DNA from: an uncultured Methanomicrobiaceae archaeon
GTDB lineage: Archaea > Halobacteriota > Methanomicrobia > Methanomicrobiales > Methanoculleaceae
Reading direction: 5' to 3'
Assembly: GCA_963826525.1 (NCBI GenBank)
Contig: CAWGXH010000004.1
Coordinates: 1,344,001 to 1,408,000, forward strand
Length of the DNA stretch: 64,000 bases
Positions 1,377 to 27,302 of this stretch are shown piece after piece (within the stretch, counting starts at the first letter, position 1; each line of letters begins with the position of its first letter). The notes under the pieces were generated by a model, which did not search any database, was not told the DNA's origin, and saw only the letters and a program-made list of their open reading frames with translations. Position numbers and translations under genes: made by a program.

Positions 1377-1566
1377 CGACCACGGTACCCATCAATGAAC
1401 GCGGACAATTCCCGCCGCCTGTGCCGGGAGGTGCGGGCGGCGGAGAGATCCGCTTGCGGCCGGATACAGGCCCCTGTATGCTTTTTGCGCCCTCCGAATC
1501 CCGGAAATGTATCGCTATCGTCACGGAGCAGATCGGTGAGGTGTCGACCGGTATTGAGAGGAGAGA

Positions 1567-1586
1567 GTAGAGGAGATCTCCTTAAC
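1567..1586. promoter_or_regulatory. Candidate operator (W/Mo regulon palindrome)
   Basis: GTAGAGGAGATCTCCTTAAC, ending 20 bp before the TATA element AAATTATATA (1607-1616) of tupA copy 2. Confidence 0.5.
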
Positions 1587-1646
1587 CCCAACCGATCAGT
1601 TGCAGTAAATTATATATGTGAGATTAATCTTTCCAGACAGCTGAGT

Positions 1647-2639
1647 ATGAGACCGAAACTGACGCTTCTTACGGCCGGTATTGTCGTACTCGCTGTCATC
1701 ACTGCTCTGTGTGCAGGGTGCACCGGGACAACACCGGGGAACGAAACTCCGAATGCGACGGCGAACGCGACACCCGTCGGGACTGCAGGAGCTGCCGGCG
1801 GCAGCAATGTCCTCCGTATTGCGACTACGACGAGCCTCGATAACACCGGACTGCTTACCGCGATGGAGCAGGTCTACGAGAACGAGACCGGTGTCGACCT
1901 CCAGTTCATCGCACAGGGGACGGGCCAATCCATCGATACCGCCACGCGCGGCGACGTGGATATGATCATGGTCCATGCGCCGGCGCTCGAGCAGGTATTC
2001 ATCGACCAGGGCTACGGCATCAATCCCCGCTGCTTCGCCTACAACTACTTCATCATCGTCGGGCCGCCCGCCGACCCGGCAGGGATCCAGGGACTGTCCG
2101 CCGCGGATGCGTTCAAGCAGATCTATCTCGCGGGCAGCAACGGAACCTCCGGTGTTGCCTTCGTCTCTCGCGGTGACAACTCCGGCACCCATACGAAGGA
2201 GAAGGAACTCTGGGCTCTTGCAGGCTACAACTACACCAGCCAGGTTCAGGGTTCCAGCAACTGGTATCTGGAGTCCGGGAAGGGCATGGGCGACACGCTG
2301 GTGCTCGCCAATGAGAAGAACGGCTATACCCTCTCCGATGAAGGCACCTACCTCGCATTCAAGTCGCAGCTGAACCTCGTGCCGCTCGTCAACCAGAGTC
2401 CGGAACTGCTGAACCGCTACAGCGCGATCGCAGTGAACCCGGAGAAGTATCCGGATACGAACATCCAGGGTGCGGATGAGTTCATCAACTGGATAATCTC
2501 GGACGAAGGGAAGCAGTTGATCGGTAATTACGGTGTTGAGGAGTACGGAAAGGCGCTCTTCACTCCGCTGTACGCACCCGAGTGCACGCAGCCGCCGTTC
2601 AACTGCACCTGTGCGGAACCGATCCCGATACCTGCATAA
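1647..2639 (+). CDS. tupA: Tungstate ABC transporter substrate-binding lipoprotein, copy 2
   Basis: Starts MRPKLTLL, has a lipobox-like LCAGC and the TTTS motif; core nearly identical to 420-1376. Confidence 0.9.
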   Translation: MRPKLTLLTAGIVVLAVITALCAGCTGTTPGNETPNATANATPVGTAGAAGGSNVLRIATTTSLDNTGLLTAMEQVYENETGVDLQFIAQGTGQSIDTATRGDVDMIMVHAPALEQVFIDQGYGINPRCFAYNYFIIVGPPADPAGIQGLSAADAFKQIYLAGSNGTSGVAFVSRGDNSGTHTKEKELWALAGYNYTSQVQGSSNWYLESGKGMGDTLVLANEKNGYTLSDEGTYLAFKSQLNLVPLVNQSPELLNRYSAIAVNPEKYPDTNIQGADEFINWIISDEGKQLIGNYGVEEYGKALFTPLYAPECTQPPFNCTCAEPIPIPA

Positions 2640-2728: not shown

Positions 2729-3432
2729 ATGATGAGCGATCGCAGAGAATGAGATCATCCAGGGAATCATCGAGGCGATCAACCTCATCATCACCCTCAA
2801 CCCGAGCGTCGTACAGATCACCATCCTGTCCCTCTACATATCCCTCACCGCCACCCTCATCGCCGCATCCGTCGCCATGCCGCTCGGGGCTTTTATCTAC
2901 TTTAAGGAGTTCCGGGGAAAGCAGGCGGTCATCAGCACGCTCCAGACACTGTATGCACTTCCCACGGTTATCGTCGGGCTGCTGATGTTTCTGCTCCTCT
3001 CCAACGTGGGGCCGTTAGGGTTTCTGCGCCTCCTCTACACGCCGACCGGCATGATCGTGGCGCAGACGGTTCTCATCATTCCTCTGCTCACCGGGTTGAC
3101 GGTCACGGCGCTCTCGGGCATAGACCGGGAGAAGCGCTATACCATTATCAGCTCTTGGCGCCAGCTCGTTCCAGTCCATCACTACCATCCTCCTGGAGGC
3201 GAAATTCGCGATTATAGGCGCGGTGGTGCTCGGCTTCGGGCGGGCGATCTCCGAGGTGGGCACGGTGATGATCGTCGGCGGTAACATCCGCGGCTACACC
3301 CGGGTGCTCACCACCGCGATCGCGCTCAACACCTCCATGGCGAACTACTCGATGTCGATCGCGCTCGGCATCATTCTGCTGGGGGTTGCGCTCGGGGTGA
3401 ACATTGCCCTCTCCCTGGTACAACGCAGGTGA
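2729..3432 (+). CDS. tupB: Tungstate ABC transporter permease (frameshifts near 2740 and 3150, probably sequencing errors)
   Basis: Joined frames give NEIIQGIIEAINLIITLNP...LYALPTVIVGL...GFGRAISEVGTVMIVGGNIRGYTRVLTTAI; paralogous to the intact 27367-28068. Confidence 0.85.
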
Positions 3433-4545
3433 ACCGGATGATCATCGAAGCACATGAACTCACCAAGGCATACAACTCCCGCGAAGTGCTCCACGGGATT
3501 ACCATTGACGTCAGTGAAGGGGAGACCCTCGGGATCATCGGACCGAGCGGTTCGGGAAAGAGCACCCTGCTCCGGCTTCTGGACCTGATCGAGCCGCCGA
3601 CCTCGGGGGATCTCAGGCTCTTCGGGGTGAACGTGACGGATAAGCATCCCCGGATAGAGATCCGGCGGCGGATGGGCATGCTCTTCCAGAAGCCGATCGT
3701 CTTCAACTCCAGCGTCTATAACAATGTCGCCATGGGGATGAAGTATCGGAAGGTGCCGAGAAACGAGATCGACCGGCGCGTCACAGGAGGCGCTTGAGGC
3801 GGTGGGTCTCTCCCAGTACATCAGGAGCAAAGCGCCCGATCTCTCCGGCGGCGAGCAGCAGCGGGTGGCGTTATCAAGGGTGATCGTCACCGAGCCGGAG
3901 ATCCTCTTCCTCGACGAGCCGACGGCAAACCTCGACCCGACTTCCACGGCCACCATCGAGGAGATAGTGCTGCGGCTGAACCGTGAGCTCGGAACCACTA
4001 TCGTCATAAACACCCACGACATGCTCCAGGGTCAGCGGCTCTCGCAGCGGGTCGGGGTCATGATCGCGGGTGAGATCATGCAGGTTGGAAAACCGAGAGA
4101 GATCTTCCACAATCCGAATAACCTTCAGATCGCACGGTTTGTGGGGGTCGACAACATCCTCTCCGGCAGGATCGTCCCGGGCGGTCAGAATGGCCTTACG
4201 GTGGTCGAGGTGCAGGGAAAACGGATCGAGGTTGCAGAGCAGCCTCCGGGCAGGAGGAATGCCGGGGTGAAGGTCGTCTTCCGGGGAGAGGACGTCACGA
4301 TCGGAACCGGGGAACCGGCCACGACGAGTGCCCGGAACGTCTTTTCGGGTTTCATTACAGGTATCGAATCGACCGCGCCGTTCGTCGCCGTGACGATTGA
4401 CTGCGGATTTCCGGTCACGGCGCTCGTGACCGCCCGTTCCGCGGATGCTATGGACTTAGAGGCCAAAAAAAGAGTCTGGGTCTCCTTCAAGGCCAGCGCC
4501 CTGCACCTCATCCCGGAGGAGGCGGATGCCGGCGCCGGGGGATAG
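3429..4545 (+). CDS. tupC: Tungstate ABC transporter ATPase with TOBE domains (frameshift near 3785)
   Basis: Walker A GPSGSGKS, LSGGEQQR signature, Walker B ILFLDEPT, C-terminal TSARN...FKASA TOBE/Mop region. Confidence 0.88.
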
Positions 4546-5505: not shown

Positions 5506-5554
5506 TCAAGGTGAATATAGAAACTATATATTGGTGTCAGTTCATGGTTTTTTC

Positions 5555-6630
5555 ATGAACAATATGCGCATATGTGCACTTCTGTGCCTGTGCCTCTGCG
5601 CCGCAGTCATGATCTGCGGCTGCACCGGCACGTCGACCGAGACCCCCGAGTCGGGAAACGCCACTGCCACTCCGACGTCTGCAGAGCAGATTCAGGTCAA
5701 GGTCTTCCTTGCCGGAAGCCTCGCCGGGCCGTTTGAGAAGATGAAAGCGGCATTTGAAGCAGAGTTCCCGAACACCGAAGTGCTCCTCGAACCCGCAGGG
5801 AGCGTCGACACCATCAAGAAGGTGACGGAGAACGGCAAGCCCGCTGATGTCGTTGCATCCGCCGACTATGCACTCATTCCGCAGATGATGGTTCCCGATC
5901 ACGCCGACTGGTATCTCACCTTCGCCAAGAACACGATGGTGATCACCTACACGAACGAGAGCAAGTACGCTGATGAGATCACCGCGGATAACTGGTATGA
6001 TGTCCTTAACCGCGACGGCGTCAAGTGGGCGTTCTCGGACCCGAACTCCGACCCCTGCGGCTACCGCACGCCGATGGTGATCCAGTCTCGCCGAGGCCTG
6101 CTACAACAACGACCAGATCTTCGAGACACTTCTCGGGGAGCACAGCGGCATCACCGCTACCGAAGAGAACGGCACCTATACCATCCACGCCACCGAACCG
6201 AACCCCGACACCACAACCCTGACCATCCGCCCGAAGAGCGTCGAGCTCGGTGCAGATGGTGCAGTCCGGCGGCCTTGACTATGCGTGGGAGTACCGGAGC
6301 GTCGCGGTGCAGAACGACCTGCAGTTCGTGGAGCTTCCGGCAGCGATCGACCTCTCCTCCGTCGAGTATGCCGACACCTATGCGACCGTCCAGATCGAGT
6401 GCAAGAAGGGCAACGGCACAACCATCTATGTGGGCGCCCCCATCGTCTACGGCGTGACCGTCCCCGCGATCGCCGAGCACCCCGAGATGGGTATCGAGTT
6501 TGTCAAGATGCTGATCGGTCCCACCGGGCAGGCGATCCTGACCGAAGACGGACAGCCCCCGATCGTCCCGGCCAGTGGCTATGGCAACGTGTCCGCGCAG
6601 CTGAACTCCCTGGTTGCCATGAAGGCCTAA
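5555..6630 (+). CDS. wtpA: Tungstate/molybdate-binding lipoprotein WtpA (frameshifts near 6086 and 6249)
   Basis: Lipobox ICGC; VFLAGSL, ADVVASADY, FSDPNSDPCGYR, IRPKSVEL, DYAWEYRSVA, GAPIVYGVTVP. Confidence 0.88.
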
Positions 6631-8683: not shown

Positions 8684-9145
8684 TCAATCAGAAACAGCGT
8701 TGTGTTCGTCTTCGCCTTCGGTATCCGGGCTTTGCGGCCCGTCGAGCGAAGGTCTGCCCGTGGGAGCGTGATCCTGGTATCTGCCGCGCGTGGTCTGATC
8801 CGGTTTTATCTTCATCTTTCTGAGGAGTTCGGCGAGCATTCCGACGCCCAGTACCTCCTCGGCTGCATCGGCATACGTCGTCTCCATCATCCGGAGGAGG
8901 CAGCGCGTCCCCTCCGGGGTGGTCGATATCCCGACTCGCTCAACCCGGCGGATCAGTCCGTCCTGCTCCATCGCGGCATAGGCGGGAAGGACGTAGTAGT
9001 GCGGAACGTCGAGGTACTCGGCGAGCTTCCGCGTTGTCGGGAGGCGTATCGAGACGCCGCCCGGGGTAATACTGACGGTCATGCATCGATCTGCAAAGAG
9101 GAGGATCCGTAATGCCGCATCGAATATGTCATCCTGGTCGGACAT
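8684..9145 (-). CDS. GntR-like winged-helix transcriptional regulator
   Basis: RLPTTRKLAEYLDVPHYYVLPAYAAMEQDGLIRRVERVGIST resembles the GntR wHTH pattern LPs.R.LA..l.V....V..AY..Le..Gli....G.G. Confidence 0.65.
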   Translation of the reverse strand: MSDQDDIFDAALRILLFADRCMTVSITPGGVSIRLPTTRKLAEYLDVPHYYVLPAYAAMEQDGLIRRVERVGISTTPEGTRCLLRMMETTYADAAEEVLGVGMLAELLRKMKIKPDQTTRGRYQDHAPTGRPSLDGPQSPDTEGEDEHNAVSD

Positions 9146-9201
9146 GGTATCTGCTCGTGTATCGCTAAAATAGAATGGTTTTAATGGGAGCAGCGGAAGG
9201 A

Positions 9202-9429
9202 TCACTCCTTCTTCTTCTCGCCCCGCTCTTCTTCGGCCATCTCTTCGAGGTAGATCATCTCGGCACCGACGTCCTGCGCGATCTGCTCAAGTTCGGTCTT
9301 CCGAAAGTGCGTCCCCTCGATCTTCAGGTGTTTATCGTCTCCCTTCTCACCGGTTACGGCGACGACGCGGAAACGCGGCTGCTTTACGCCGGTTCCGACC
9401 TTCTGGCGCTCACGTACGTAGATCTTCAT
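9202..9429 (-). CDS. Small hypothetical protein (75 aa)
   Basis: Clean ORF MKIYVRERQKVGTGVKQPRFRVVAVTG with GAGGTGA SD upstream; co-oriented with the GntR-like gene. Confidence 0.75.
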   Translation of the reverse strand: MKIYVRERQKVGTGVKQPRFRVVAVTGEKGDDKHLKIEGTHFRKTELEQIAQDVGAEMIYLEEMAEEERGEKKKE

Positions 9430-10715: not shown

Positions 10716-11703
10716 TCACCCGAGCGGCTGCGGCCACCCGTCCCTGCCCTCCGCGAAGGCCTCCAGCATAAAGGCGACGAACGAGGCGGCCTCTTCCGGG
10801 TGCTCCGCCGCCGTCGGGACGGTCACGGCATAGACGATAGGCGCTCCCGTCCTGAGATTTCCGATGGAGCCGAACCGCTGAAACCCGAGCTGCACCGCCA
10901 CGTTCCGGTAGCGATCGGCGTAGTCCGCGCTCGAGAGATCGATCTCGGGCGGGAGATCGATGGAGGAGAGGCCATGGGCGTCGGCCACGCTCCGGTACTC
11001 GAAGGCGTAATCGATACCGCCCGCATCGAGGAGCGAGAGGAGGTAGATGGAACCATCCCGGATCTGCACCTTCCCGTCCGACGGGCGCAGCACCTCGGGG
11101 AGCGTGATCGTGACAGTCCCGCCCGCCCGGTTCACGACCGGCCGGGGGTCGAGGTGATCGGCGATGATTCCGTCAAAGAGTGCCCTGTTCCCGTAGTACT
11201 CTTCGGCGAGTGCCGTCACCATCAGCGCCCGGTAGCCGCATGCGTCGAGCATCGGGTTTGAAAACCCCACCCGCACGTCCGGCCGGGCAAGCACGGCATA
11301 CCAGTTCTCCGCGGTGATCTCATCGGCATGCAGGCTCTTTTCGGTGTAGGCGATCACCATCTCGTTCGTGGCGAACGATGTGTAGGTATCGGTGTAATTG
11401 CCGCCCCCGTCTTCCATCGGGCGGAACATCATCTCCGGGATCAGGGACTCGTCAGCGACAGCGACGACGTCGATAGCCCGGTGCAGATCGGTGACCTGCC
11501 TGACCGCCTGGATGCTCCCGTGCCCCTCGACCCGGACGTCGATTTCGGGGTGCAGGTTCTCGTAGGCTGCCTCGATCTCCTCCATGGGCAGGAGCAGGCT
11601 GCCTGCCGGTACGACGCGGAGCTCCCGTGGTTTCGCCCTCTCCCGTGCAGCCCGCACTGAAGATCAGCAGGACGGCGCAGAGCGCAAGTAGCATCGCCTT
11701 CAT
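10716..11703 (-). CDS. wtpA: Second WtpA-type tungstate-binding lipoprotein, without its own permease (frameshift near 11625)
   Basis: Lipobox FSAGC; LRVVPAGSL, DVVAVADES, FSNPMLDACGYR, DYAFEYRSVA, GAPIVYAVTVP. Confidence 0.85.
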
Positions 11704-11706
11704 CCG

Positions 11707-12261
11707 TTACCGCCTGTGCACTTCGACCCGGTCGACCCACTTCACCCACGAACTCCCCTCGGTGATGACGTCGGGGCTCTCGGTGATGATGACGATCCGT
11801 AAGGGGCCGCCCTCCTCGTAGGTGAGCGGTCTGCTGTCCTGCTCGTAAGCCAGGATCACCCGGAGGGGCGGCGGCGGGATCTCGTGGAGATTCTCATCGA
11901 ACGTGAAGAACCCCTCTCCCCGCACCTGGTCGGTATCGAAGACCCAGAGATACCCGTCTTCGGCGGAGACGTAGACGAGGTCATTCTCATCCGCCCCGCC
12001 CGCCATCGCAGCGAGGTTGGTGAGGAGCACCCCCCGGTACCGGTTCGGCCCGAAGGTTATCCCGACGGTGGAGACCGCATACCCGTATCCCTCCTCCGCG
12101 GGCAGTGCCCGCAGTTCCGCAAGCGAAAGCACTTCTTCGGTCTCGCCGGCAACCGTGAGGTTCCAGGCTATCTGCTCCTCGACCCCGTCTCCGCCCTGCC
12201 CGGTGCACCCGGAGATGCAGACGGCGGCAGCGAGCAGGAGAGCGTATACAACACGCAGCAC
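11707..12261 (-). CDS. Lipoprotein with one sulfite-oxidase-like (molybdopterin-binding) domain
   Basis: Lipobox ISGC; WNLTVAG...LSLAELRALP...YRGVLL...SAEDGY...ILAYEQD..PL...GGPLRIV...WVKWVDRVEV follows the Oxidored_molyb pattern. No Cys in the mature domain. Confidence 0.75.
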   Translation of the reverse strand: MLRVVYALLLAAAVCISGCTGQGGDGVEEQIAWNLTVAGETEEVLSLAELRALPAEEGYGYAVSTVGITFGPNRYRGVLLTNLAAMAGGADENDLVYVSAEDGYLWVFDTDQVRGEGFFTFDENLHEIPPPPLRVILAYEQDSRPLTYEEGGPLRIVIITESPDVITEGSSWVKWVDRVEVHRR

Positions 12262-12267
12262 CTGTCG

Positions 12268-13098
12268 TCACCTCCTGCCGCAGAAGAAACTTGCCGCGCC
12301 GATCGCGAGAGGTACCGGCAGCAGCGAGAGGGGTGTTCCGACAGCCCCGGCAGTGGTCGTATCGGCAGCAGGTCCGGTCTTCTGGAGCGACTTGACAAGT
12401 GCGCTCCGCTCACCCTGGTAGCCTCCCTCGTAGACCCTGACCTCGTCCACCCACTTCACGGATAGGCCGCTCGTGGAGGGGAGCAGGTCGTAGAAATGCT
12501 GGGCGGCCTCGGGCAGCGTCTCGTACATATCCTGGTTGCCGTAGACGTGCAGGCCTTCCGCATTTGTCGAGTTGTCGGCGAAGAACGTAAGCCGCATTCC
12601 GTTGTAGAACTCCGGGACATAGCCGGTGCCTTGGCGCTCGCCCGCTCCCGTCTCATCGCCGTTGTACCAGGTGATCCCGATCGGCCCCTGCCGGGGATCG
12701 GGCTGGTAGACGTTCTCGTAGGCAAACTCGACGTGGTAACCGTCGGCGGCCTTCACCATCACCTCGTCGCCGGGCTCCGCACCGCCGACCAATTCGGCGA
12801 GATCACGGATATCGGTGCCCTTCACGGCACCCCGGTCCTTGAAGTTCGTCGTCTCGTTCGGATCCCACTTCTCTCCCTCGAAGACCGGGCCCTGGTGGTA
12901 GTAATGAGTCACGCCGTCACCGAGCACCGGGAGGTTCTCTTCCATCCAGCGGTAGTCCACCGTCGTTTCGTTCAGGATCGTCGCCTGGTCGGCCGCGATC
13001 TTCACCACATGGAGCTCGGTGGTGGGCGCTGCCTCTGCCGCACCCGCCGCTGCCAACAGAAGCAGGGCGACGGCGAGTATTCGTGTCAGTGATGTCAT
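12268..13098 (-). CDS. Exported, C-terminally anchored protein with a diverged sulfite-oxidase-like domain
   Basis: Sec signal peptide; ETTVDYRWMEENLPVLGDG..YYHQGP, VKGTDIRDL..LVGG, VKAADGY, GMRLTFF, SVKWVDEVRV; Thr-rich linker and hydrophobic tail ending in RR. Confidence 0.7.
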   Translation of the reverse strand: MTSLTRILAVALLLLAAAGAAEAAPTTELHVVKIAADQATILNETTVDYRWMEENLPVLGDGVTHYYHQGPVFEGEKWDPNETTNFKDRGAVKGTDIRDLAELVGGAEPGDEVMVKAADGYHVEFAYENVYQPDPRQGPIGITWYNGDETGAGERQGTGYVPEFYNGMRLTFFADNSTNAEGLHVYGNQDMYETLPEAAQHFYDLLPSTSGLSVKWVDEVRVYEGGYQGERSALVKSLQKTGPAADTTTAGAVGTPLSLLPVPLAIGAASFFCGRR

Positions 13099-13136
13099 AT
13101 CGTGTCAATCTCCGGAATCTGTACGTTTGGGTCTGG

Positions 13137-15468
13137 TTACGTATCTTCAAATAGCACGGTGCAGTCGACCGTCGCCCCCGGCGCCACGACGACATTCTCG
13201 ATAGTTCGGCTTTTCGTTTCGCCGACGACCTTCACCGCGTAGGCGCCGATCCGCATCCCCGGGAAGGTATGCGGCGTCGTCTCCCCGGTGTAGCGTCCAT
13301 AGAGGTAGATCTTCGCTCCCGGCGGGGTGCTGTTCACGCTGAGCGATCCGCAGGGATATTCGGTCAGGGTCGACCGGATCGTCCCTCCTGCTCCTGCCGG
13401 AGCACCCGGCGGGATCGTGATCTCCCCGTTCGCCGGGAGGTATCCGGGGAGCGAGAGGGTGATCGTGTGCCTCCCCGACGAGAGATCGCGAACGACGGCG
13501 GGCGTCCGAAGATCGGTTGGATACCCGTCCACGAAGACCAGCGCTCCCGGCGGGTCGGAGACGACCGTGACGGCGTACGTCTCCCCCGCCCCGGGCACTG
13601 CGGTGAACTGCTCCCCGTCCGCGAGGGTGTCGGGCAGCGCGATCGAGTGGTAGGTATCATTCTCGCGGAGGGTGATCCAGGCTCCGTTGCCGTCTATATC
13701 CACCGTCGCCGGCAGGGTATACGCCGGGTACGCCCCGTTGACGGTGAACGTTGCTCCGGCAAGGTCGGGGTTCCCGAATGTGATCGTCCGGACGCGCCGG
13801 TTCTGCACACCATCTACACGGACTGGTGTGATGGTGTCGGGATAGACCCACACCCGGCGTGTCCCGTAGTGGATGCCGGTATCCGCAGAATCGATGCTGC
13901 TCGCGGCTTCGTAATCGAGGGCGATCGTGTGGAGTCCTTCGCGGAGCCCGTACACCACGGAGGGGGTGTTCCGGTCGATCCGCGTATTGTCGATGGTGAT
14001 CGCCGCGTCCTGCGGGAAGGAGTCGATGAAGAGTCCGCCGGAGCGGTTCGAGCGAACCGCCTCAGGCGTCACGGTTGGTGCTGCTGTCGGGGTTTCCGGC
14101 AGTTCGCTCCCCAGATCAGGCTCCGGCAGGCCTTCAGGCGTCCCGAGCGCAGGTTCGCTCTCATCAGAGCCTCCGGTGATGAGGGAGGCGATGAAGTGGA
14201 AGAGTGCGAAGAGCGGGTCGAACAGTCCGGGCGTGGCCGGGGTCGCCGTCGCGGTCGGCACAGGCCGGGTGGTCGCCGGGGTCGCAGGCGACGTCGTGGT
14301 AGCCGGGACGGTCACGGTGAGAGATACTGCCGGCAGTGGTTCCGATCCATTGAGCGGCGCGAGCACCAGATCGACGGCGACCGTCTCATCCGCCACGGCG
14401 GTGACCGTCGTGGTGGCGTTCTCGTAGCCCTCCCTGAAAAGGACGATGGTATGCTCCCCGACCGCGACTTCCTCGAGGATTGTATCGGTCACGTTCCCGG
14501 TCTCGTTTCCGTCGAGGACGATCGCCGCTCCCGTGGGCAGGGACGAGACGGCGATGCTCCCCTGCAGCGGGAGAAGGTCGAAGGTGATCTGCCCGGTTTC
14601 CAGTGCTTTTACGGTGATCCATCGCTCCTGACTTGCGGCGTAGCCGTCCTTCTCCACCCTGACCGAGTGCGACCCTATCTCAAGATCGCGGATCGTGCAT
14701 GGCGTGAGCTGACCGGTGTTCTCGTCGTCGAGGTAGACGGTTCCCCCCGCAGGGCTTGATTCGACCTCGAGCGCTCCGGTCGCCTCTTCCTCGCTGAAGA
14801 TGGCGACCTCGCTGACGTACTGTGCGGATAGGCCGGTCGTCGTCGGCACACCGGGCTGGAAGAAATGCCAGTACTCGGGATCGAAGCACTCCTGCATATC
14901 GGTGACACCGAAGGTGTGGTTTCCCCAGGGGTTGACGGAGGTGTCCGCAAAGAAGACGAGCCGCATCCCCTCCCGGTACTCGGGAACGTATCCCTCGTCG
15001 GCACGGTACCAGGTAACGACCATCGGCCCCTGCCGCGGTTCGGGCTCGTAGACGTTCCGGTAGGGAAAGATCTTTGAAAACCCGTCGGGGGCCTTCACCC
15101 TGACGGTTTCGCCCTCCGCCATCCCCCCGACAAGGTCGCAGAGGTCGGCGAGGTCGGTGCCCTTCACCGCACCCATATCCTTCTCATGTGACGTTGGTAT
15201 CTTCTCCGCCGGATTCCAGGGATCTGACCGGGTCGAAGACCGGCCCCTGGTGGTAGTAGTGCGTCTCCCCGTCCCCGAGGACGGGCAGGTTCTCCTCCAT
15301 CCACCGGTAGTCGACGGTCGTCTCCTGAAGGACGGTTGCTCCGTCGGCAGCATAGCGCACGATATGCACCTCCGTCGTCGCGGCACCGACGCTCCCCGGG
15401 ATGAGGATGCAGAGGAGCAGCAGAATGGCCATAAGCCGGAAAAGAGCATGTATCGGCATAGGGATCAC
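13137..15468 (-). CDS. Exported protein: diverged sulfite-oxidase-like domain followed by PEGA repeats (frameshifted near 15190-15225)
   Basis: N-terminus MPIHALF...TTEVHIVRYAADGATVLQETTVDYRWMEENLP joins the 770-aa frame; repeated S.P.GA.V.lDG..TG..TP PEGA motifs; Thr/Pro linkers. Confidence 0.75.
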
Positions 15469-15508
15469 CGTTGTGCAGATGAGGAACTCTGAAAAAGAGG
15501 CATGGGTG

Positions 15509-16926
15509 TTATCTCCTGCGGAGGAGGAAGAGCAGCCCGAGGGCGAGCACCGGTACCCAGGTCGGGACGGGGAGCGACAGCGGGAACCACGATCCGCCGG
15601 CCGCCGTCGTCGTCTCCGTTGCGGCTGCGGCGATCACCGCTGTCTGCTGCGCTGAGGCGGTCGGGGCGGCTGTCGGTTCACTGGCGGCGGTTGTGGTCAC
15701 CGGCGTGGCGAAGGTCGCTTCGGGGTTGTAGTCGAAGCTCGATTTGGCCGGTGAACCTCCGCTGCTGCTGCTCCCCGAACCTCCCGAGCTCGGCGGCGTC
15801 GTCGGTGCGGGAGTAACCGGGCTTACCGTGGACGTTCCGATGAGGGCGAAGATCGAGAGCCCGCTTGGAGATGCGGCCTCGAAGACGTAGTTGCCGGCAT
15901 CATCGGTGCCGATGAGCGTCGTTGCGAGAGCAGTCGTGGTGCCGTCATCGGCTCTACGCATGATCACGACCTTCTCCACTCCGCCGACCGCCGTCACCCA
16001 GGCCGGGCTGACGGCCATCCGGATCGTCGCGGCCGTGATGACACCGCCGTCGCCAGCGTTCGCAATATTGCTCTTCTGGACGTTCATGACGTATGCGATA
16101 TCCGTGATACCGCTTCCCGACTGCTGGGCGGTGAGGAGGAATGCGCTCTGTGCCGCAGGGTCGGGCTCCCGTGCGATCGTCGTCGTGAGCCGTGCATCCG
16201 ACGGCGGCATCTCGCTCATGTCGAGCGCGATCTGCGCTGCTGCCGTCCCGACGGTAGCATCGACGTTCGCCGTCACCGGGCTGCTCCGCGCGGTCACGCC
16301 GGTGACGGTTCCGGTGACGGTCGTCTCGCCGACCGCAGGTTCATCCCCGGTCTCGATGACGATCTCCTCCCAGCCGCTGCCAACGTCCTGCATCACGATT
16401 CTGTTGCCGTCGGTCGTGACGTTGGCCGTGGTCTCCTGCCGGTTGATCGTCACCTGCTGTGCCCCGCCTGCCGTAGTTGTCTGCACGCCGCCGGGGGCGA
16501 AGGAGCAGTCGCCCGATCCGATCGGGGTCTCCGCCTCTCCGCCCCGCTCCCGGTGGTAAACGTAAGATCGATCGCACTGGCATCGCTGGGTGCGTAGAGG
16601 CATCTCCTGGTCTGCCTGGTCTGCTGCCGACCCAGAACGTGACCGTTGGTGTATCGGATGCGACGAGATCGAACTCCGTAGCCCGCACGACGAGCCGGCT
16701 TGCCCAGATTCCCTCCGCCCCGTAGGTGCCGGGCTCGGTGAGGGTGAAACGCCCGCGTTCGTTCCAGTTTATTTTGGCGATGATGACGGTGCCTGCAGGT
16801 GCGTCGGCACCGTCGATGACGGCCGTTCCCCAGGTACTGTGCGGGAAGAACCGGCATCGATTCGGCGGCTGCCGCTCCCACCAGCAGGAGCAAAAGAAAT
16901 AGTGTGATGATTGGTCTGCTATCCAT
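15509..16926 (-). CDS. Surface protein with PGF-pre-PGF-type domain and C-terminal membrane anchor (several frameshifts)
   Basis: Signal peptide MDSRPIITLFLLLLLVGAAAA; AYVMNVQK...ATIRMAVSPAWV...VFEAASPSGLSIFALIG; Ser/Gly/Thr linker; ends VLALGLLFLLRRR. Confidence 0.7.
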
Positions 16927-16938
16927 GGTTATCTCTGC

Positions 16939-19900
16939 CTACAAGGCGATTGCTGCAAGTTCACCGCTTCCCCGAAGGTACACCCAGTAGCCTTTGCCCG
17001 GAGAGCAGATCTCCCGTGTCGGCATGCGAACCAGATCCTCCGCGAATGATGGCGGTTTCGTATTCCTGGTTTTCTGCATCGAATCCGATCACCTGTGTCC
17101 ATGCGTCGCCGAGGGAGAGGAGGGTGTCGCGTGCCTGTGCAGGTTCGGTGTCGGTGAATCCGACCGCGTTCCAGCCCTTATAGAGATCTGCTGTCGGCGG
17201 CGTCTGCAGGGGCTCGTCGCTGAAATAGAGCGACACGTTGCAGGCGGCTGCATGAGTAGATCCAGTACGCCGCGAGGGGTTTCAGCGTATCGGTCGCCTG
17301 GACTTCCTCCCAATACTTAATCGCCGCATTGTAGCGCCAGATCGCGTGGTTTGCGGTATTGACATCGCTGAAGATCGCGGCGGTGTTGCTGCCGGCTGCA
17401 AGCCTCTTGGGGATGGAGACGAAGTTCAAGCCCTGATGCAGGGCAGAGCTCCGCATCGGCGGGAATGGGGAGATCGATCAGGGCGATCTCGTCGATGCTT
17501 CCGATCTTCTGTTTGCCGCTCGTCAGTGCGGAACCGACGAGTTTCAGCGGCCATGACGGTTTGTCGCCGTCCGCCGGGAGCGGGATGCCGTTTATCTCGT
17601 TGGCGACGATGATGTTGTTGTTCAGTTTGATGAAGCTGCTCTCGAAGGTGGCGGAGAAGTCGTCCTCGGTGCCCTTTGTATTGTCGGGGCCGTAGTCGAT
17701 GACGGTGACGTTGTAGCCGATATCGGCGAGCGTTCCGTTGAAGGGATTGGTACCGTAGTCGTGCTTGTTGGCATCGTCGACCCAGCCGACGAGGAGCCAG
17801 AGCGGCATTCCCGACCAGACGTTGCCGTCATCGTCGGTGTAGGTTGCTCCGTGGCCGCCGAGGGCGCAGGCCTTCCCGGCTTCGAAGTACGAGCGAGTGA
17901 TGGTGTCGGTGATCGCGCCGGTCAGGATGAGGTTCCAGTCCTCGCGTGCGCCGGGGTGAATCTCGACCGTGGCGATATTCTTGTTCGCGACTCCGGCAGC
18001 GGATGGATACTGAATGCCGCCGCTCCAGTAGTAGTGCCAGTAGTCCTCGGCGAGGCATGCCCGCATATCGTCGGCTCCGAAGATGCCGTCGGGGGCATTG
18101 AAGAAGAGGCGGATTCCGTCGCGGTAGTCGGGGACATACTCGTCGTCCGCCCACCATGCCAGAATAGCCTCGCCCTGCCGGTCAAGTGGTGTATAGAGGT
18201 TGGTGTAGTTGATCTTTGCTTCGTAGCCGTCGGAGGCGACGAGGACGATCTCGCTGCCCTCGGGCGCTCCGCCGACGAGGTCGCAGAGATCCTTGATGCA
18301 CGTACCCCGGACGACGTTATCGACTTTGCCGGGGTTTATATCCTCAGCGGGATTCCAGAGGTCGTCCGGATCGAAGGTCGGACCCTGGTAGCGGAGGCGG
18401 ACACCGTCGGCGCCGCCGATGACGGGGAGGTTCTCCTCCATCCACTGGTAGGTCTTCGTCGTCTCGTTAAGAACCGTCACGCCGTCGGCGGCGTAGCGGA
18501 TGATCTGTACGGAGGGAAGGTCGGTCGGCTCCTGGAACTCTGTCAGGGCGATCTTCTCGATGTTGCCGACGCTCTTGCTGCCAACCGCTCCCTCGCCGAC
18601 GAGACGGAGCGGGAACGCTCCGCCGGTGATGGCAGAGCCGTTGACCTTGTTGGCGACGATGTAGTTATTCTTATTCGCTACGATCTCCTGGCTGGTAAAC
18701 TCCTTGCTGTAGGGAGAGACGCCGCCCGAGGAGACGATGACCGTGTAACCGGCCGCTGCGAGGTTGTCGTTGAATGCACCCGAACCGTGCATGACGTCGT
18801 CGTCGACCCAGCCTGCGAGATACCAGAGCGGAACGCCCGTCCAGGTGGAGACGCCATCGTTGTAGGTCGCGCTGTGGCAGGCGGCACCTTCTTCGAACTC
18901 GGCCTCGGAGATGACGGCGGTGATCGCAGCCCCTTCGAGGGTGAGCGTCCATTCTCCTTCCTCAGGTGCACCGGGCAGATCGACGAGGGTGATCGAGGCG
19001 ATGTTGCCGACTCTCTGTTTGCCGCTCGTCAACGCGGAGCCCTGCAGTTTTAGGGGGTAGCCGTCGTCGTTCCCGAGCGGGCTGGCGTTCAGCTTGTTCG
19101 CAACGATGTAGGCGTTGCTCTCTGCGATATCGGCGCTGTCGAGGGTGACGGTGTAGCCGTCCTCTGCGGTGACGTTGATGGTGTATCCTTCGGCCGCAAG
19201 TGCATCGTCGAACGTCCAGTGGTTCGAGGTCTCGATATCGTCGACGACGCCGACGAGGTACCAGAGCGGCATTCCCGTCCAGACGCGGTCACTGCTGTCG
19301 GTATAGGGTGCAGCGTGGCCGCAGGCAATGCCTTCCTCGAACTCTTCCTGCGTCAGGGTGCGGGAGAACTTCCCGTTCAGGGTAATCGTCCAGCCGTCGG
19401 AAGGCTCCGGAAGCCCGATGAGTTCGATCTCGACGACGTTCCCGACCTTCTGGCCTGCGTTCACATGAGCGCCGATCATCTGGAGCGGCCAGCAGGGTTT
19501 CTCGCTGTCCCCGATGACTGCCGGGAGGGGTTCGCCGTTCAGGGTGTTCGCGACGATGATCGCATCGTCACGGGCGACGCTGGCGCTCTCGAAGTTAACG
19601 CTGTAGCCATCGCCGGCGATGACTTTAATCGAGTAGCCCTCTTCGGCGAGGTCGTCGTTGAATGCACCGGCACCGTGCTTTTTGTCGTCGTCGACCCAGC
19701 CTGCGAAATACCAGAGCGGGACACCCGACCAGACGTTTCCGTCATCGTCGGTGTAGGTTGCGCCGTGGCCGCAGTCGACGGCATCCTCGAAGTACGCCTG
19801 GTCGATGGTATCGGTCAGGGCACCTTTCAGGGAGAGCGTCCAGTCTCTCGGGCTCGGCGATATCGACCGTGATGCCGACCATCGCGGTGGCGGTCTCAGG

Positions 19901-20805
19901 GGTAACGCCGTCTTCGCCATAGTAGAAGACAACTTCATCGCCGTCGACGAGTTCGTAGACGTCGACACCCTCGGAGGCAGACTGCAAACCCGTCGAGCGG
20001 ATCGCCGTTCACCATGTAATACCAGGAGGCACCCCCTTTGACGTAGCAGTATTCGCTGACGTTATCGAGGAGGAGAAAACCATTGGAGACCTTCTTCTTG
20101 TCCCCGACGGCGTAGGTGAAGCCTTCTGCTTCGGCGACGGCATCAAGTGCCCCGAGCGGCGTGAGCGTATCGACGGTGTACCCTGTCCCCGATGTCGCGG
20201 TGCAGGTGAAGGTGCCGTCTTCCAGCGTCACCGGACCGTCATAGAGGACGTCCATCGCCTCGTTGATCGAAACGGTGATATTGACGAGCGCGGTTGCGTT
20301 CTCCGGAGTAATGCCGTCCTCTCCGTAGTAGAAGACGACCTCGTCGCCGTCGACGAGTTCGTAGACGTCGACACCCTCGGAGGCAGCTGCAAACCCGTCG
20401 AGCGGATCGCTGTTCACCATGTAATACCAGGAGGCACCCCCTTTGACGTAGCAGGTACTCGCTGACATTATCGAGGAGGAGAAAACCGTTCGAGAGCTTC
20501 TTCTTATCCCCGACGACGTAGGTGAATCCTTCGGCATCGGCGACGGCATCGAGCGCTCCGAGCGGCGTGAGCCGGTCAACGGTGTACTCCGTTCCCGAGG
20601 ATGCGGTGCAGGTGAAGGTGCTGTCGGTCAGCGTCACCGTATCGTCAAAGAGCAGATCGGCCGTAGCAATCATGGCGGCGGTGTTCTCCGGGGCATACGG
20701 TTCGACCGGGAGCCCGGTATCGGCTCCCGCCGCAGGCACGATGAGGATCATCAGTGCGAGCAGCACAGTAAAGCAGATCACTTTGTTTTCCTTAAAATGT
20801 ATCAT
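16939..20805 (-). CDS. Giant exported multidomain protein of about 1290 aa: 2 DUF4430-like repeats, 5 sulfite-oxidase-like domains, paired GWN/GYW C-terminal repeats (about 6 frameshifts)
   Basis: ATG 20805 with GGTGAG SD. ORF fragments 20239-20856, 19935-20579, 19742-19987, 17317-19968, 17178-17456 and 16961-17236 join in order; ends GKGYWVYLRGSGELAAIAL-TAG at 16939. Confidence 0.75.
19860..20660 (-). repeat. Intragenic tandem duplication of about 400 bp encoding two DUF4430-like domains
   Basis: TCGCCGTCGACGAGTTCGTAGACGTCGACACCCTCGGAGGCAG and the following 100+ bp occur near 19938 and near 20345. Confidence 0.85.
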
Positions 20806-20895
20806 AAACTCACCTTTTCGCAAACAGGCTGCCAAGACGTCTCCCAGCATGTGCAAGGCATTAAAAAGGTGGAAGGGGGCGAGTATATAGTTTGC

Positions 20896-20933
20896 ATTTA
20901 CTTAATCTATTGAACTAACTTAATGTGGTTAAC
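20896..20933. promoter_or_regulatory. Two overlapping candidate operators upstream of the surface-protein operon
   Basis: ATTTACTTAATCTATTGAAC (20896-20915) and ACTAACTTAATGTGGTTAAC (20914-20933); minus-strand TATA AAACTATATA at 20893-20884, identical to the wtpA promoter element. Confidence 0.6.
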
Positions 20934-21032
20934 TCGTCCGGTGGCGGGCAAAGGGGCTAAAAAAAGGGCGAAAACGTAAAATCCATTTCAATTCTGCCGT
21001 ATCTCCGGGTGCCGACTTTCGGAGCGCCCCCG

Positions 21033-22172
21033 TCAGTCCTCCGGGGATCGCCTCATCCCCGGCCGCCATCGCTGCAGGGCGTATGCGAGCACCATGCCGG
21101 CGATGAACGCGACCGTGAGCCCGACCGCCAGGGTGAGGATGGCGATCACTGCGGTGACGATATACGAGTCGGTCTTGATGCTATGCTTTCCGAGCTCGAT
21201 TCCGACGAAGACGAGCAGCCCGCCGAAGATGCCGAGCGGGATCAGGGTCAGCACCTCGGGAGGTGCGAAGAGCAGGGCGAAGGCGAGGATGAAGAGGCCT
21301 GCGGCGATGTTCGCTCCACCGGTGCGGGCGCCGAACCGGTACTGGGCTGCCATCCCTCCGGCGCCGTGGCACATCGGGAACCCGCCGAGGGGTGTCGAGA
21401 CCAGGTTCATCAGGCCGATCGTCCGGGAGAGGCGATCGGGTTTGACCTCCTTGCCGAAGAGATCGATCGTCAGGAGCGAGGTCGCGAGGATTGCGTTCGT
21501 CAGCGTCAGTGGGATCTGCGGGAGAACCAGTGTCCACGCTCCTGCGACAAAGTCCGCTGCGGTAGGAATGATCAGGTACGGGAGGGGGATAAAGCGGAGC
21601 GGTGGGAACCCTGCAGTGAGGATCCCGGCACCAAGGCCGATAGCGATCACCACCAGGGCAGAGATGTCCGGCAGTCGGGTCCGGTTTGCGAGGACGAAGA
21701 AGGCGAGGATGATCGCGATCGAGAGCACGGCGAACGAAAGGTCGGTGAGAATGTATCCGAGCGACGTCCGGAGCAGCAGGAGTGCAAGCCCGGCCTGAAC
21801 GCCGCGAATGACGCTTTGCGGGATCCACTTCCGGATACGCTCCATGCCGCCGAATACCCCGAGCAGGAAGAAGATCACGCCGAGGATGATCCCGGCCGCT
21901 GCGATCTCCCCGCCGCTCAGCCCTTCGGCGATGACGATAGCCCCTATCGCTTTCATCGGTTCGATAGGGATCGGGAGCCGGTAGTAGAGGCCGGCGATGA
22001 CGTACCAGGCAGCCATGAAGAGGAAGATGTGGCTGATATTGACGTCCGAGACAAGGGCGACACCGAGGATGATCGGAAAGATCGTGCCGATATCCCCGAG
22101 TCCCCCTGCGATCTCCTCAAGCGTGAACCGGATGCTTGGGGGATCAGTTGTTGGGCGAGCGTGCGGTGCCAT
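21033..22172 (-). CDS. MOT1-family molybdate/sulfate transporter
   Basis: EIAGGLGDIGTIFPI, YRLPIPIEPMKAI, LPQIPLTLTNAI, GGFPMCHGAGGMAAQYRFGARTG; polytopic membrane protein. Confidence 0.85.
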   Translation of the reverse strand: MAPHARPTTDPPSIRFTLEEIAGGLGDIGTIFPIILGVALVSDVNISHIFLFMAAWYVIAGLYYRLPIPIEPMKAIGAIVIAEGLSGGEIAAAGIILGVIFFLLGVFGGMERIRKWIPQSVIRGVQAGLALLLLRTSLGYILTDLSFAVLSIAIILAFFVLANRTRLPDISALVVIAIGLGAGILTAGFPPLRFIPLPYLIIPTAADFVAGAWTLVLPQIPLTLTNAILATSLLTIDLFGKEVKPDRLSRTIGLMNLVSTPLGGFPMCHGAGGMAAQYRFGARTGGANIAAGLFILAFALLFAPPEVLTLIPLGIFGGLLVFVGIELGKHSIKTDSYIVTAVIAILTLAVGLTVAFIAGMVLAYALQRWRPGMRRSPED

Positions 22173-22393
22173 TCATCTCCTCACGGGTAGTCTGTAGGCG
22201 GTAATGATTAATGATGTTTGTTGATTTCGATACCGGGACGAAAGCAGAGACCCGTGTCGTAGATGGGAACATCATCAGTCGTCTGGGGAAGTGGGGTCTC
22301 TTTTGTCCCCTCGGTCGGGTGAGCCTGTTCTCTGAGCCCTGCCGGAGCGTTCGCGCCTTTCCGTGCCCGAAATTTGCGCTCTACCGATGGTGT

Positions 22394-23312: not shown

Positions 23313-23861
23313 ATGGTAATTACCGTGAACCGAAACGATCAGGACGTGAAGAACATGGAGATCCGATACCGACCGATAGGCATCATTCATTCCGAGTTCA
23401 CCGAGCAGGATGAGACGCCGATTCAGGGCATCTTCAACGAATCCGTGGGCCAGGTTGAGGTCTTTCCCGAGTTTGCGGAGGGCCTCCGGGATATCGAGTC
23501 CTTCTCGCATATAATCCTCCTCTACCACTTCGACCGGGCGGACGGGTGCACCCTCCTTCAGAAACCGTTCCTGGACGGCGAAAAGGAGCGCGGTATCTTT
23601 GCTATCAGGCACTTCAAGCGCCCGAACCCGATCGGTATCTCAATCGTCCGTCTGCTTGGGGTGCAGGGGAACGTGCTCGAGATCAAAGGTGTGGACGTCC
23701 TCGACGGGACACCGCTGCTCGACATCAAGCCCTATGTCTACCGGTTCGATCACCGTGATGAGGTCCGGAGCGGATGGGTTGATAACCAGCATATCGACGA
23801 CATCGCAGAATGGAACAGCACGCCGAGAGCGCTGCGCGACCGTGAGAGGACAAACCGGTGA
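23313..23861 (+). CDS. tsaA: TsaA/TrmO-family SAM-binding methyltransferase-like protein
   Basis: PIGIIHS, GLRDIESFSHIILLYHF, GIFAIR...RPNPIGISIVRL, GVDVLDGTPLLDIKPY. Confidence 0.85.
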   Translation: MVITVNRNDQDVKNMEIRYRPIGIIHSEFTEQDETPIQGIFNESVGQVEVFPEFAEGLRDIESFSHIILLYHFDRADGCTLLQKPFLDGEKERGIFAIRHFKRPNPIGISIVRLLGVQGNVLEIKGVDVLDGTPLLDIKPYVYRFDHRDEVRSGWVDNQHIDDIAEWNSTPRALRDRERTNR

Positions 23862-26381: not shown

Positions 26382-27302
26382 ATGAAGATGCAGAAATACC
26401 TTCTTGTTGCGGCAATCCTGATTGCTGCGCTTCTCGTCTGCGGGTGCACGCAGACCGCAACGACAACGGCTGAATCACCGCAGACACTCCGTATTGCGAC
26501 GACGACGAGCCTCTACGACACGGGGCTCCTTGACTCCCTCACCCCCGCGTTCGAGAAGGAGCATAACGCCGTCGTACAGGTCGTCTCCGCCGGAACCGGC
26601 AAGGCGCTCGAGTACGGGCAGCGCGGCGACGTCGACATCATGATGGTGCACGACCGTGCCCGCGAGGATACGTTCATCGCCGATGGGTATGGCACCGACC
26701 GCCGTGTCTTCGCCTACAACTACTTCGTCGTCGTCGGCCCTGAGTCCGACCCGGCCGGCATCGCGGGCATGCAGCCTGAAGAGGCGTTCATCACCATTCG
26801 TGAGAAGGGTATGAACGGCACCGGCGTGGTCTTCGTCTCCCGCGGCGACAGCTCCGGCACTCACGCAAAGGAACAGGCTCTCTGGAAAGGGGCAGGGTTC
26901 AACTACTCGACCGAGGTTCAGCAGTCCGGCGACTGGTATGTCGAGGCCGGAACCGGCATGGGCGCGACCCTGGTGATGGCGAGCGAGAAGCAGGCATACA
27001 CGCTCTCCGATATCGGCACCTACCTCGCTTACAAGGGCGACCTTGCGCTCGTCACGCTCGTCGATGAGGGAGACAGTCTCCTCAACATCTACAGCGTGAT
27101 GGCCATCGACCCCGCAAAGCACCCGGGTGTCAACAACAGCATCGCGAAGGACTGGATCAACTACATCGTTTCCGACGACGTGCAGCAGCAGATCGCCGAC
27201 TTCGGCGTCACGGAGTACGGCCAGCCGCTCTTCTTCCCCGCTGCCGGGAACGCCGAGACGATCGGTGTCCCCGCCGACGAGTGCGCGACCCCGCTGAACT
27301 GA
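26382..27302 (+). CDS. tupA: Tungstate-binding lipoprotein, copy 3
   Basis: Lipobox VCGC; ATTTSLYDTGLL, GTGKAL, MVHDRARE, FVSRGDSSGTH, YTLSDIGTY. Confidence 0.92.
   Translation: MKMQKYLLVAAILIAALLVCGCTQTATTTAESPQTLRIATTTSLYDTGLLDSLTPAFEKEHNAVVQVVSAGTGKALEYGQRGDVDIMMVHDRAREDTFIADGYGTDRRVFAYNYFVVVGPESDPAGIAGMQPEEAFITIREKGMNGTGVVFVSRGDSSGTHAKEQALWKGAGFNYSTEVQQSGDWYVEAGTGMGATLVMASEKQAYTLSDIGTYLAYKGDLALVTLVDEGDSLLNIYSVMAIDPAKHPGVNNSIAKDWINYIVSDDVQQQIADFGVTEYGQPLFFPAAGNAETIGVPADECATPLN

Follow-up and report, generated by a model that had tools for sequence, protein, structure and literature searches.

A conserved operon of sulfite-oxidase-fold surface proteins and a dedicated WtpA suggests an undescribed cell-surface step in tungsten/molybdenum uptake

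Introduction

In haem uptake of the Isd (NEAT) and Shp-HtsA type by Gram-positive bacteria, surface-anchored repeated binding domains form relays that end in the lipoprotein solute-binding protein of an ATP-binding cassette (ABC) importer. For tungsten and molybdenum (W/Mo), the solute-binding protein WtpA binds tungstate or molybdate in a conserved cleft with carboxylate ligands. The methanogens of the order Methanomicrobiales depend on W/Mo enzymes, for example formylmethanofuran and formate dehydrogenases. The acquisition of both metals by anaerobes, in settings where sulfide converts their oxyanions to thiometallates and minerals, is presented as a paradox in the sections available of one paper (PMC11484787). 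In the literature searched, we found no accessory extracellular proteins described for the Wtp, Tup or Mod systems. Here, we analyzed a stretch of 64,000 nucleotides, hereafter the window, from an uncultured Methanomicrobiaceae archaeon (assembly GCA_963826525.1, contig CAWGXH010000004.1, positions 1,344,001 to 1,408,000), in which an operon at window positions 10716-20805 combines surface proteins of the sulfite oxidase (SUOX) fold with a WtpA paralogue, and which hints at an undescribed cell-surface step in W/Mo uptake.

The fold itself is best known from enzymes (SUOX, SorA/SorT, SoxC, YedY/MsrP and plant nitrate reductase), whose molybdenum cofactor (Moco) domain has the fold and the motifs that are also found in the operon lipoprotein. 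These enzymes possess a hairpin with the Mo-ligand cysteine, an N-terminal active-site segment, a dimerisation domain and a redox partner, none of which was recognised for the operon lipoprotein by alignment or family scans. According to the available sections of PMC11194511, the Mo-ligating cysteine sits at the tip of a long hairpin, as Cys185 in chicken SUOX and Cys102 in YedY. A nearer precedent is PruR, a truncated SUOX fold that is exported by Sec, has no Mo-ligating cysteine and, once in the periplasm, binds both a pterin and a partner protein (PMC11194511, and PMC13259868 for a review, both as far as their available sections go). The operon lipoprotein resembles PruR (7KOS, 7KOM, 7KP2, 7RKB) in the small Sec-exported SUOX fold, the absence of a Mo-ligating cysteine and the shortened hairpin. 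In contrast, PruR is described in these sections as proteobacterial, single-copy, paired with a DcpA-type cyclic di-GMP enzyme and marked by a P-W hairpin motif, whereas the operon proteins are archaeal, fall into three divergent subfamilies and occur in up to eight copies, some of them on giant proteins, with an S-T-V-G hairpin tip in the lipoprotein and a WtpA solute-binding protein as its predicted partner. Membership of the PruR-DcpA system was rejected on this difference of partner. An earlier reading of the window made from the letters alone (the sequence-only reading) had put forward apo SUOX-like domains that bind at the cell surface; since PruR has already been described, the idea of such a binding domain is not itself new. 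For SUOX-fold proteins attached to Wtp, Tup or Mod transporters, we found no description in the main texts of the literature searched, the PruR papers included. The system described below suggests, by analogy, a combination of PruR-like binding modules with the Isd/Shp-HtsA logic of a surface relay to a solute-binding protein, and would carry the use of the SUOX fold for binding outside the cytoplasm, known from signalling in Proteobacteria, over to transport in archaea.

Results

Six surface protein genes, four of which encode SUOX-fold domains

The operon consists of six co-directional minus-strand genes in a window of about 60% G+C, whose closest protein relatives bear names that point to a Methanoculleus-like member of the Methanomicrobiales. 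In a genome of the same genus (G110, 99% complete), the syntenic region is 86.7% identical in DNA and keeps each of the six genes intact, encoding a giant protein of 1289 aa, a C-terminally anchored protein of 461 aa, a PEGA protein of 772 aa, an anchored type-B protein of 277 aa, a lipoprotein of 184 aa and a WtpA of 328 aa with a lipobox. The intergenic gaps of this intact copy measure only 3-54 nt, in agreement with the tight packing noted in the sequence-only reading. N-terminal signals were found in every gene, as that reading had also stated. For WtpA, the lipobox signal MKAMLLALCAVLLIFSAGC lies in another frame than the mature domain, from which it is parted by a 1-nt insertion near position 11626. 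The features of the operon in the window are as follows.

10716..11703, minus strand: dedicated WtpA paralogue of the tungstate/molybdate-binding lipoprotein family (TIGR03730, 333 bits)
11707..12261, minus strand: lipoprotein LipoA, 184 aa, with lipobox, short linker and a single SUOX-fold domain
12268..13098, minus strand: 276-aa anchored protein, with signal peptide, type-B SUOX-fold domain, low-confidence linker and C-terminal membrane helix
13137..15459, minus strand: PEGA protein, with signal peptide, one type-B SUOX-fold domain and then four to five PEGA domains
15509..16926, minus strand: surface protein with C-terminal anchor (461 aa in G110), matching PGF-pre-PGF weakly
16939..20805, minus strand: giant surface protein (PF00174, 6.9e-16; DUF4430, 5.9e-06 in G110), ordered as signal peptide, DUF4430-like repeats, three type-A domains, one type-B domain, one type-A domain and an unassigned C-terminal domain
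17464..17946, minus strand: type-A SUOX-fold domain 4 of the giant protein
17953..18501, minus strand: type-B SUOX-fold domain of the giant protein
18514..18960, minus strand: type-A SUOX-fold domain 3 of the giant protein, the best PF00174 stretch
18964..19401, minus strand: type-A SUOX-fold domain 2 of the giant protein
19408..19851, minus strand: type-A SUOX-fold domain 1 of the giant protein
19860..20700, minus strand: DUF4430-like (transcobalamin beta-domain-like) repeats of the giant protein, frameshifted in the window

One of the three DUF4430 (PF14478) repeats of the intact G110 giant protein passed the cut-off (27.1 bits against 23.8), and the PGF-pre-PGF label given to the 461-aa protein by the sequence-only reading was not confirmed, as the G110 orthologue scored 21.7 bits with TIGR04213 against a curated cut-off of 28.

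Altogether, eight SUOX-fold domains were counted in four proteins, exactly as the sequence-only reading had estimated. They form three subfamilies of one fold, namely, type A (about 148 aa; four copies, all in the giant protein), type B (about 185 aa; one copy each in the giant, PEGA and 276-aa proteins) and the LipoA domain. Pfam PF00174 matched the lipoprotein (5.6e-12) and the giant protein, and profile-profile comparison with hhalign related the lipoprotein family to type A at 95.5% and to type B at 96.2%, compared with 31.6% between type A and type B. A search of the type-B profile against PDB sequences returned one match, at chance level (E 0.68), and the tie of type B to SUOX is made solely by hhalign to the lipoprotein family and by structure. 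AlphaFold models were obtained for the lipoprotein (predicted local distance difference test [pLDDT] 90.6) and for the type-B domain of the 276-aa protein (pLDDT 89.7). All 45 Foldseek matches of the lipoprotein model at E<=0.001 were SUOX or PruR. In VIA-align, the same model reached Z 15.8 with chicken sulfite oxidase (132 aligned residues, root-mean-square deviation [rmsd] 2.0) and Z 15.2-14.0 with five PruR entries (7KP2 at 15.2, 7KOM, 7KOS, 7KOU and 7RKB), with 33 SUOX/PruR entries between 15.8 and 9.0 and unrelated folds beginning at 4.7. The type-B model scored highest with PruR 7KOM (Z 11.8, 132 aligned residues, rmsd 3.1), followed by 11.4 with chicken sulfite oxidase, with 30 SUOX/PruR entries between 11.8 and 7.1 and unrelated folds beginning at 4.5. 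Pfam, profile-profile comparison and the two models therefore agree that the SUOX fold is adopted. As a lead only, type B fell in the ESM Atlas among unnamed clusters at 0.90-0.91, one of which carries PF00174 on 35% of its members.

Within the source genome (G000), type-A and type-B domains are confined to the operon. Among the best 150 of 475 representatives, type-B domains stand N-terminally in proteins of 156-3139 aa. A search for longer, fused forms of the lipoprotein gave one protein of 457 aa whose sole family is PF00174; fusions to a solute-binding protein were not seen, and the outcome says little in either direction. One distant relative of the lipoprotein (P0108, 270 aa, E 1.1e-6) is recorded with PF00174 and PF02597 (ThiS/MoaD family), and would be a fusion to a sulfur carrier domain of the molybdopterin-synthase type.

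Loss of catalytic features and Sec-type export

Cysteine is absent from the mature lipoprotein and from the mature type-B domain. The profile alignment of the lipoprotein to plant sulfite oxidase 1OGP starts past the cysteine loop. Furthermore, the structural alignment starts at residue 148 of chicken sulfite oxidase and the model is about 15 residues shorter than 1OGP across the aligned range, by which the lipoprotein lacks the N-terminal active-site segment as well as part of the hairpin. In type A, Cys27 is nearly invariant and followed by a histidine, and hhalign puts this cysteine upstream of the hairpin; judging from the alignments, loss of the Mo-ligand cysteine is thus clear for the lipoprotein and type B, unlike type A. 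The lipoprotein has the family motifs A-x-D-G-Y, L-A-Y-E-x-x-G-x-P-L, G-P-L-R and V-K-W, and its G-G-P-L-R and S-x-W-V-K-W align with pocket motifs of sulfite oxidase. Because the Mo-ligating cysteine hairpin and the N-terminal active-site segment are lost in the alignments, such a SUOX-fold building block cannot be expected to work as a molybdoenzyme. Automatic annotation names these proteins "molybdopterin-dependent oxidoreductase" or "YedYZ catalytic subunit", and counting lipoprotein-type proteins among the sulfite-oxidase-family molybdoenzymes would be wrong, since the catalytic cysteine is lacking by alignment; the present analysis corrects a widespread annotation in this respect.

None of the six signal peptides contains the twin-arginine pair (RR), the WtpA signal in the other frame included, as had been claimed. 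Moreover, TatC of the twin-arginine translocation (Tat) pathway was found in none of six genomes (the source genome and five relatives that are 98-99% complete), compared with 11 of 14 control genomes in the same search. With neither RR signals nor a detected TatC, export is best described as Sec-type, and export of a cofactor-loaded protein would not be available. The contrast with Tat-exported Moco enzymes that was drawn in the sequence-only reading stands as regards the Sec-type route and carries little weight as an argument, since a Tat pathway seems to be lacking altogether in these archaea. Pfam and NCBIfam scans of the six proteins found no dimerisation domain and no haem, cytochrome or YedZ partner, so the stated lack of an electron-transfer partner was confirmed.

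A conserved core with a dedicated WtpA clade

An orthologue of the lipoprotein was found in 51 of 121 sampled genomes of the order, from 18 of 30 genera. The type-B gene, the lipoprotein gene and wtpA stand in this sequence on a single strand in both sets of loci examined (30/30 and 20/20), that is, in 41/41 distinct genomes, nine of which occur in both sets; these are 41 of the 51 lipoprotein-positive genomes, and as they are related the counts cannot be taken as independent. Of the 20 long loci, 15 have a giant-type gene with type-A domains no more than 10 kb away. A profile search covering 401 genomes of the phylum returned strong matches in other families, from which 17 loci were fetched; the same triad is present in 10 of these, and wtpB and/or wtpC directly follow on the same strand in 6. 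The conserved core therefore comprises type B, the lipoprotein and WtpA, often extended to WtpB and WtpC, and the giant and PEGA proteins are frequent extras beside it. The linkage to WtpA extends, with the 10 loci from other families, over two or more orders' worth of families. Weak lipoprotein-like matches in three further families (L094-L096, E 1e-8 to 1e-14) have no wtpA neighbour and were not counted as members. Another family of the phylum contributes locus L092 (G160:C19, 5467-10098), where a 1574-aa frame has several lipoprotein-like SUOX-fold repeats followed by four type-A repeats, with ABC ATPase-like genes downstream and no wtpA in view.

The last gene of the operon appears from its sequence to be a bona fide member of the WtpA family, with 333.1 bits for TIGR03730 against a cut-off of 242.75 and E values of 3.2e-67 to MA_0280 (3CFX) and 6.6e-52 to Pyrococcus furiosus PF0080. 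It thereby belongs with the WtpABC and archaeal ModA-WtpA importers (3CFX, 3CFZ, 2ONK, 3CG1), whose wtpB and wtpC follow it at other loci, and differs from them in that the WtpAs linked to the lipoprotein form a separate clade with the motifs EGHGSIQ and LGFQRF. The 30 linked WtpAs split from five unlinked paralogues at a branch with support 100/97. EGHGSIQ is invariant in 29/29 aligned linked WtpAs, LG[FY]xRF is invariant or nearly so in the same 29, and both are absent from 5/5 unlinked paralogues; the motifs AGS, GS and SNPxLDxCGYR are invariant in the WtpA alignment. A WtpA subfamily with its own signature motifs is thus co-inherited with the lipoprotein. At locus L091 (G369:C18, 6832-9770), one more of the 17 loci from other families, a gene that fuses lipoprotein-type and type-A domains has a wtpA on either side and wtpB and wtpC behind it, and EGHGSIQ and an F-x-F-H-R-F signature are found on the downstream wtpA only.

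Predicted docking of the lipoprotein over the WtpA cleft

Complex prediction with the mature lipoprotein and WtpA gave a score of 0.72 (0.63, 0.72 and 0.72 in three runs), compared with 0.01 for the best of three controls. A score of 0.72 was reached by 58 of 80 solved complexes and by 2 of 110 mismatched pairs, counts that apply here only approximately, as our own alignments were used. The runs share at least 97% of their contacts, and the pLDDT of the partner is at least 89. On the WtpA side, the predicted interface consists of G8 of A-G-S, G34-H35-G36, S122-N123 to D127, R189-D190-G191 and the loop G247-S253, so that the ligand cleft is covered at its mouth and both signature motifs are taken in. 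On the lipoprotein side, it holds the most conserved loops and consists of the hairpin tip S64-T65-V66-G67, which stands in the place of the lost Mo-ligand loop, together with D102-G-Y-L-W-V-F-D109 and E168-G-S170. Invariant or nearly invariant residues make up 16 of the 31 interface positions of WtpA (29% overall) and 15 of the 24 of the lipoprotein (27% overall). We know of no solved complex of a SUOX domain with a solute-binding protein that the model could have copied.

The predicted contact has the form to be expected of the final step in an Isd-like relay. The likeness to Isd and Shp-HtsA is one of relay logic only, as the operon differs in fold, ligand and archaeal host, its last contact is a prediction, and Pfam scans of the operon proteins revealed no NEAT domains.

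Discussion

A proposed capture and hand-off module for Wtp

A functional tie of the operon to W/Mo uptake is, in our judgement, quite probable. The more specific reading, in which the operon is an extracellular accessory module that captures a W/Mo species and hands it to the Wtp tungstate/molybdate importer, stands at about an even chance. WtpA, the lipoprotein and the 276-aa type-B protein would be tethered at the outer face of the membrane by two lipoboxes and one C-terminal helix, and a Sec-exported SUOX-fold domain without the cysteine hairpin would serve as a binding domain in the manner of PruR. The lipoprotein would dock its vestigial active-site face over the ligand cleft of the co-evolved WtpA paralogue and hand over, or condition, a W/Mo species that WtpA would then carry to WtpBC. 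Capture may be extended outward through the envelope by the PEGA protein and by the giant protein, which has DUF4430 and five SUOX-fold domains. Free oxyanion, thiometallate and metal-pterin are all candidates for the species handled, in view of the conserved carboxylates, cysteine and histidine of type A and of a fold descended from a pterin pocket. The sequence-only reading had proposed a relay of apo-domains; its structural side has gained support from the fold, the loss of the cysteine hairpin in the lipoprotein and type B, Sec-type export, the linkage to WtpA and the predicted docking at the cleft, whereas a W/Mo ligand, the way in which it is passed on and the part played by the large proteins are inferred.

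A bolder version is tentative and rather doubtful. In Methanomicrobiales and neighbouring lineages, cofactor-less SUOX-fold domains may form an envelope machine that extracts W/Mo from thiometallates, from mineral- or organic-bound forms or from released metal-pterin, and passes it from domain to domain to the specialised WtpA. If true, this would be the first surface acquisition relay for W/Mo and the first such relay in archaea, as well as a second independent case in which the Moco pocket was turned to use as a binding module. With a conserved surface module connected to a dedicated WtpA, the operon would bring concrete, expressible proteins to the question of Mo/W acquisition.

Several observations weigh against a hand-off module. 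Of the 121 genomes sampled from the order, 70 lack the lipoprotein, and W uptake as such can therefore do without the module. No type-A (giant) gene was seen within 10 kb in 5 of the 20 long loci from the order, and a long relay is therefore not universal. Types A and B, being only weakly related at the profile level, may differ in function. As for the predicted complex, the evidence from the motifs is not fully independent of it, because the model saw alignments that contain them, and docking at the cleft face would also suit an inhibitor or regulator, since the same face of WtpA must meet WtpB. Finally, the genes are broken by frameshifts in the source genome, and the operon would be dead there if the breaks were real.

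Other readings of the operon

The possibility that the lipoprotein binds free pterin, such as a product of methanopterin or molybdopterin breakdown, and switches W/Mo uptake through WtpA while delivering no metal, as a sensor or gate akin to PruR with DcpA, is unlikely. PruR is among the best structural matches of both models (Z 15.2 for the lipoprotein and 11.8 for type B), and the predicted contact covers the very face of WtpA that is needed for docking to the permease. PruR is likewise a Sec-exported, Cys-less protein that binds pterin and then the periplasmic domain of its partner, and in Agrobacterium tumefaciens it sandwiches the pterin with Y104, W160 and N102 (PMC11194511, available sections). 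The lipoprotein has conserved aromatics, Y139 and W175, that may be candidates for such a role. However, the hallmark DcpA-type partner is absent, the downstream gene being wtpA in 41/41 examined genomes of the order; the hairpin tip reads S-T-V-G and not P-W; and a sensor would hardly need eight domain copies on giant surface proteins.

That the operon is a decaying pseudogene cluster with real frameshifts is slightly less credible still. Relative to G110, it contains at least 10 uncompensated 1-nt extra bases within 10 kb. These indels lie near 20452, 19979-19985, 19844, 17444, 17252 and 17003 in the giant gene, near 16833, 16622, 16597 and 16544 in the gene for the 461-aa protein, near 15186-15232 in the type-B domain of the PEGA gene, and near 11626 in the operon wtpA, as described above. 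Apart from the indels, however, the frames are open and the DNA is 87% identical to the intact genes of G110, and the defects are nearly all single extra bases that also occur outside the operon, with the canonical wtpA (5531-6457) carrying one at 6086 and one at 6250 relative to G110, and tupB and tupC (2877-4545) likewise in fragments. The assembly is only 87.6% complete despite its 16 contigs, and it seems to carry insertion errors throughout. Given the intact genes in G110, the breaks outside the operon and the incompleteness of the assembly, the frameshifts are very probably assembly errors.

Cofactor salvage is improbable. Under that explanation, SUOX-fold and DUF4430 domains would capture Moco, its tungsten counterpart (Wco) or other cofactors from dead cells and WtpA would receive the stripped metal. 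Both domains do descend from cofactor-binding folds, and G-G-P-L-R and S-x-W-V-K-W of the lipoprotein align with pocket motifs of sulfite oxidase. Free Moco, however, is very labile, and the sole transporter parts of the operon family are Wtp components of the oxyanion type. The cleft of PruR is too small for Moco owing to its shortened hairpin (PMC11194511, available sections), and the lipoprotein is similarly shorter, by about 15 residues.

An equally poor prospect is that the large proteins are general envelope or adhesion proteins tied to WtpA by genomic position alone. In its favour are PEGA domains, a PGF-type anchor and large repetitive architectures, as commonly met with in archaeal envelope proteins, and the great variation in length among proteins with N-terminal type-B domains, noted above for the best 150 of 475 representatives. 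Against this stand the synteny with wtpA in all 41 examined genomes of the order and at 10 loci of other families, the dedicated WtpA clade with its motifs at the predicted interface, and the restriction of type-A and type-B domains to the operon in the source genome.

Extracellular molybdo- or tungstoenzymes of the SUOX type, for example for sulfite detoxification, are suggested by the automatic names and the PF00174 matches and were rejected as having almost no chance of being right, since the lipoprotein and type B lack the Mo-ligand cysteine, no N-terminal active-site segment is present, Tat signals are absent, TatC was not detected, and neither a dimerisation domain nor a redox partner was found.

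The transport island and the region upstream of the operon

The operon lies, as the sequence-only reading had recognised, inside a W/Mo transport island, which contains two tupA genes, fragments of tupB and tupC, wtpA, wtpB and wtpC, a modA fragment, modB-like and wtpC-like genes and a third tupA. Six W/Mo solute-binding genes (three tupA, two wtpA and the modA fragment) thus fall within 27 kb. The island opens with the two tandem tupA genes (369-2639, plus strand), which are 75% identical over their aligned part, and the third tupA is found at 26382-27302. Two further features lie directly upstream of the giant gene.

20806..21032, minus strand: upstream region of the operon, with AAACTATATA at 20884-20893 and a block conserved with G110
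21033..22172, minus strand: MOT1-family molybdate transporter gene (PF16983, 6.2e-58), directly upstream of the operon on the same strand

No counterpart of the MOT1-family gene was seen at the corresponding position of G110. A plus-strand open reading frame that overlies it (21009-22190) has no family match and is probably a shadow frame.

The promoter palindrome that the operon was said to share with the island could not be recovered, as no pair of inverted repeats (0 found) is present upstream of the giant gene. What is held in common with the promoter of the canonical wtpA is a 10-mer resembling a B recognition element and TATA box (BRE/TATA-like), AAACTATATA, identical upstream of that gene (5521-5530, plus strand) and of the giant gene (20884-20893, minus strand). 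It has two exact matches, and three with one mismatch against 0.35 expected, the shuffles having been computed at one mismatch. Comparison of k-mers among 10 intergenic regions revealed sharing of this TATA-like 10-mer only. The repeat ACTTAAT occurs only upstream of the giant gene and once inside it, giving three matches, a number reached by 13 of 100 shuffles. Upstream of the giant gene, G110 conserves a block that holds two ATTAAGT repeats.

Beside wtpC, a small protein (8684-9205, minus strand) gives a weak match to GntR-type winged-helix proteins and is 60% identical in G110, and a relative at 56% identity directly follows wtpA in locus L082. From its sequence, it is a candidate W/Mo-responsive regulator. 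Lastly, a TrmO/TsaA-like gene (23313-23861, plus strand; TIGR00104, 3.6e-40) lies inside the mod-like transporter operon, and in four other genomes such a gene stands beside SUOX-fold or W/Mo transport genes, at the following positions.

L031:16372-16893, TrmO/TsaA-like gene
L048:12395-12811, TrmO/TsaA-like gene
L089:2891-3355, TrmO/TsaA-like gene
L093:8370-8768, TrmO/TsaA-like gene

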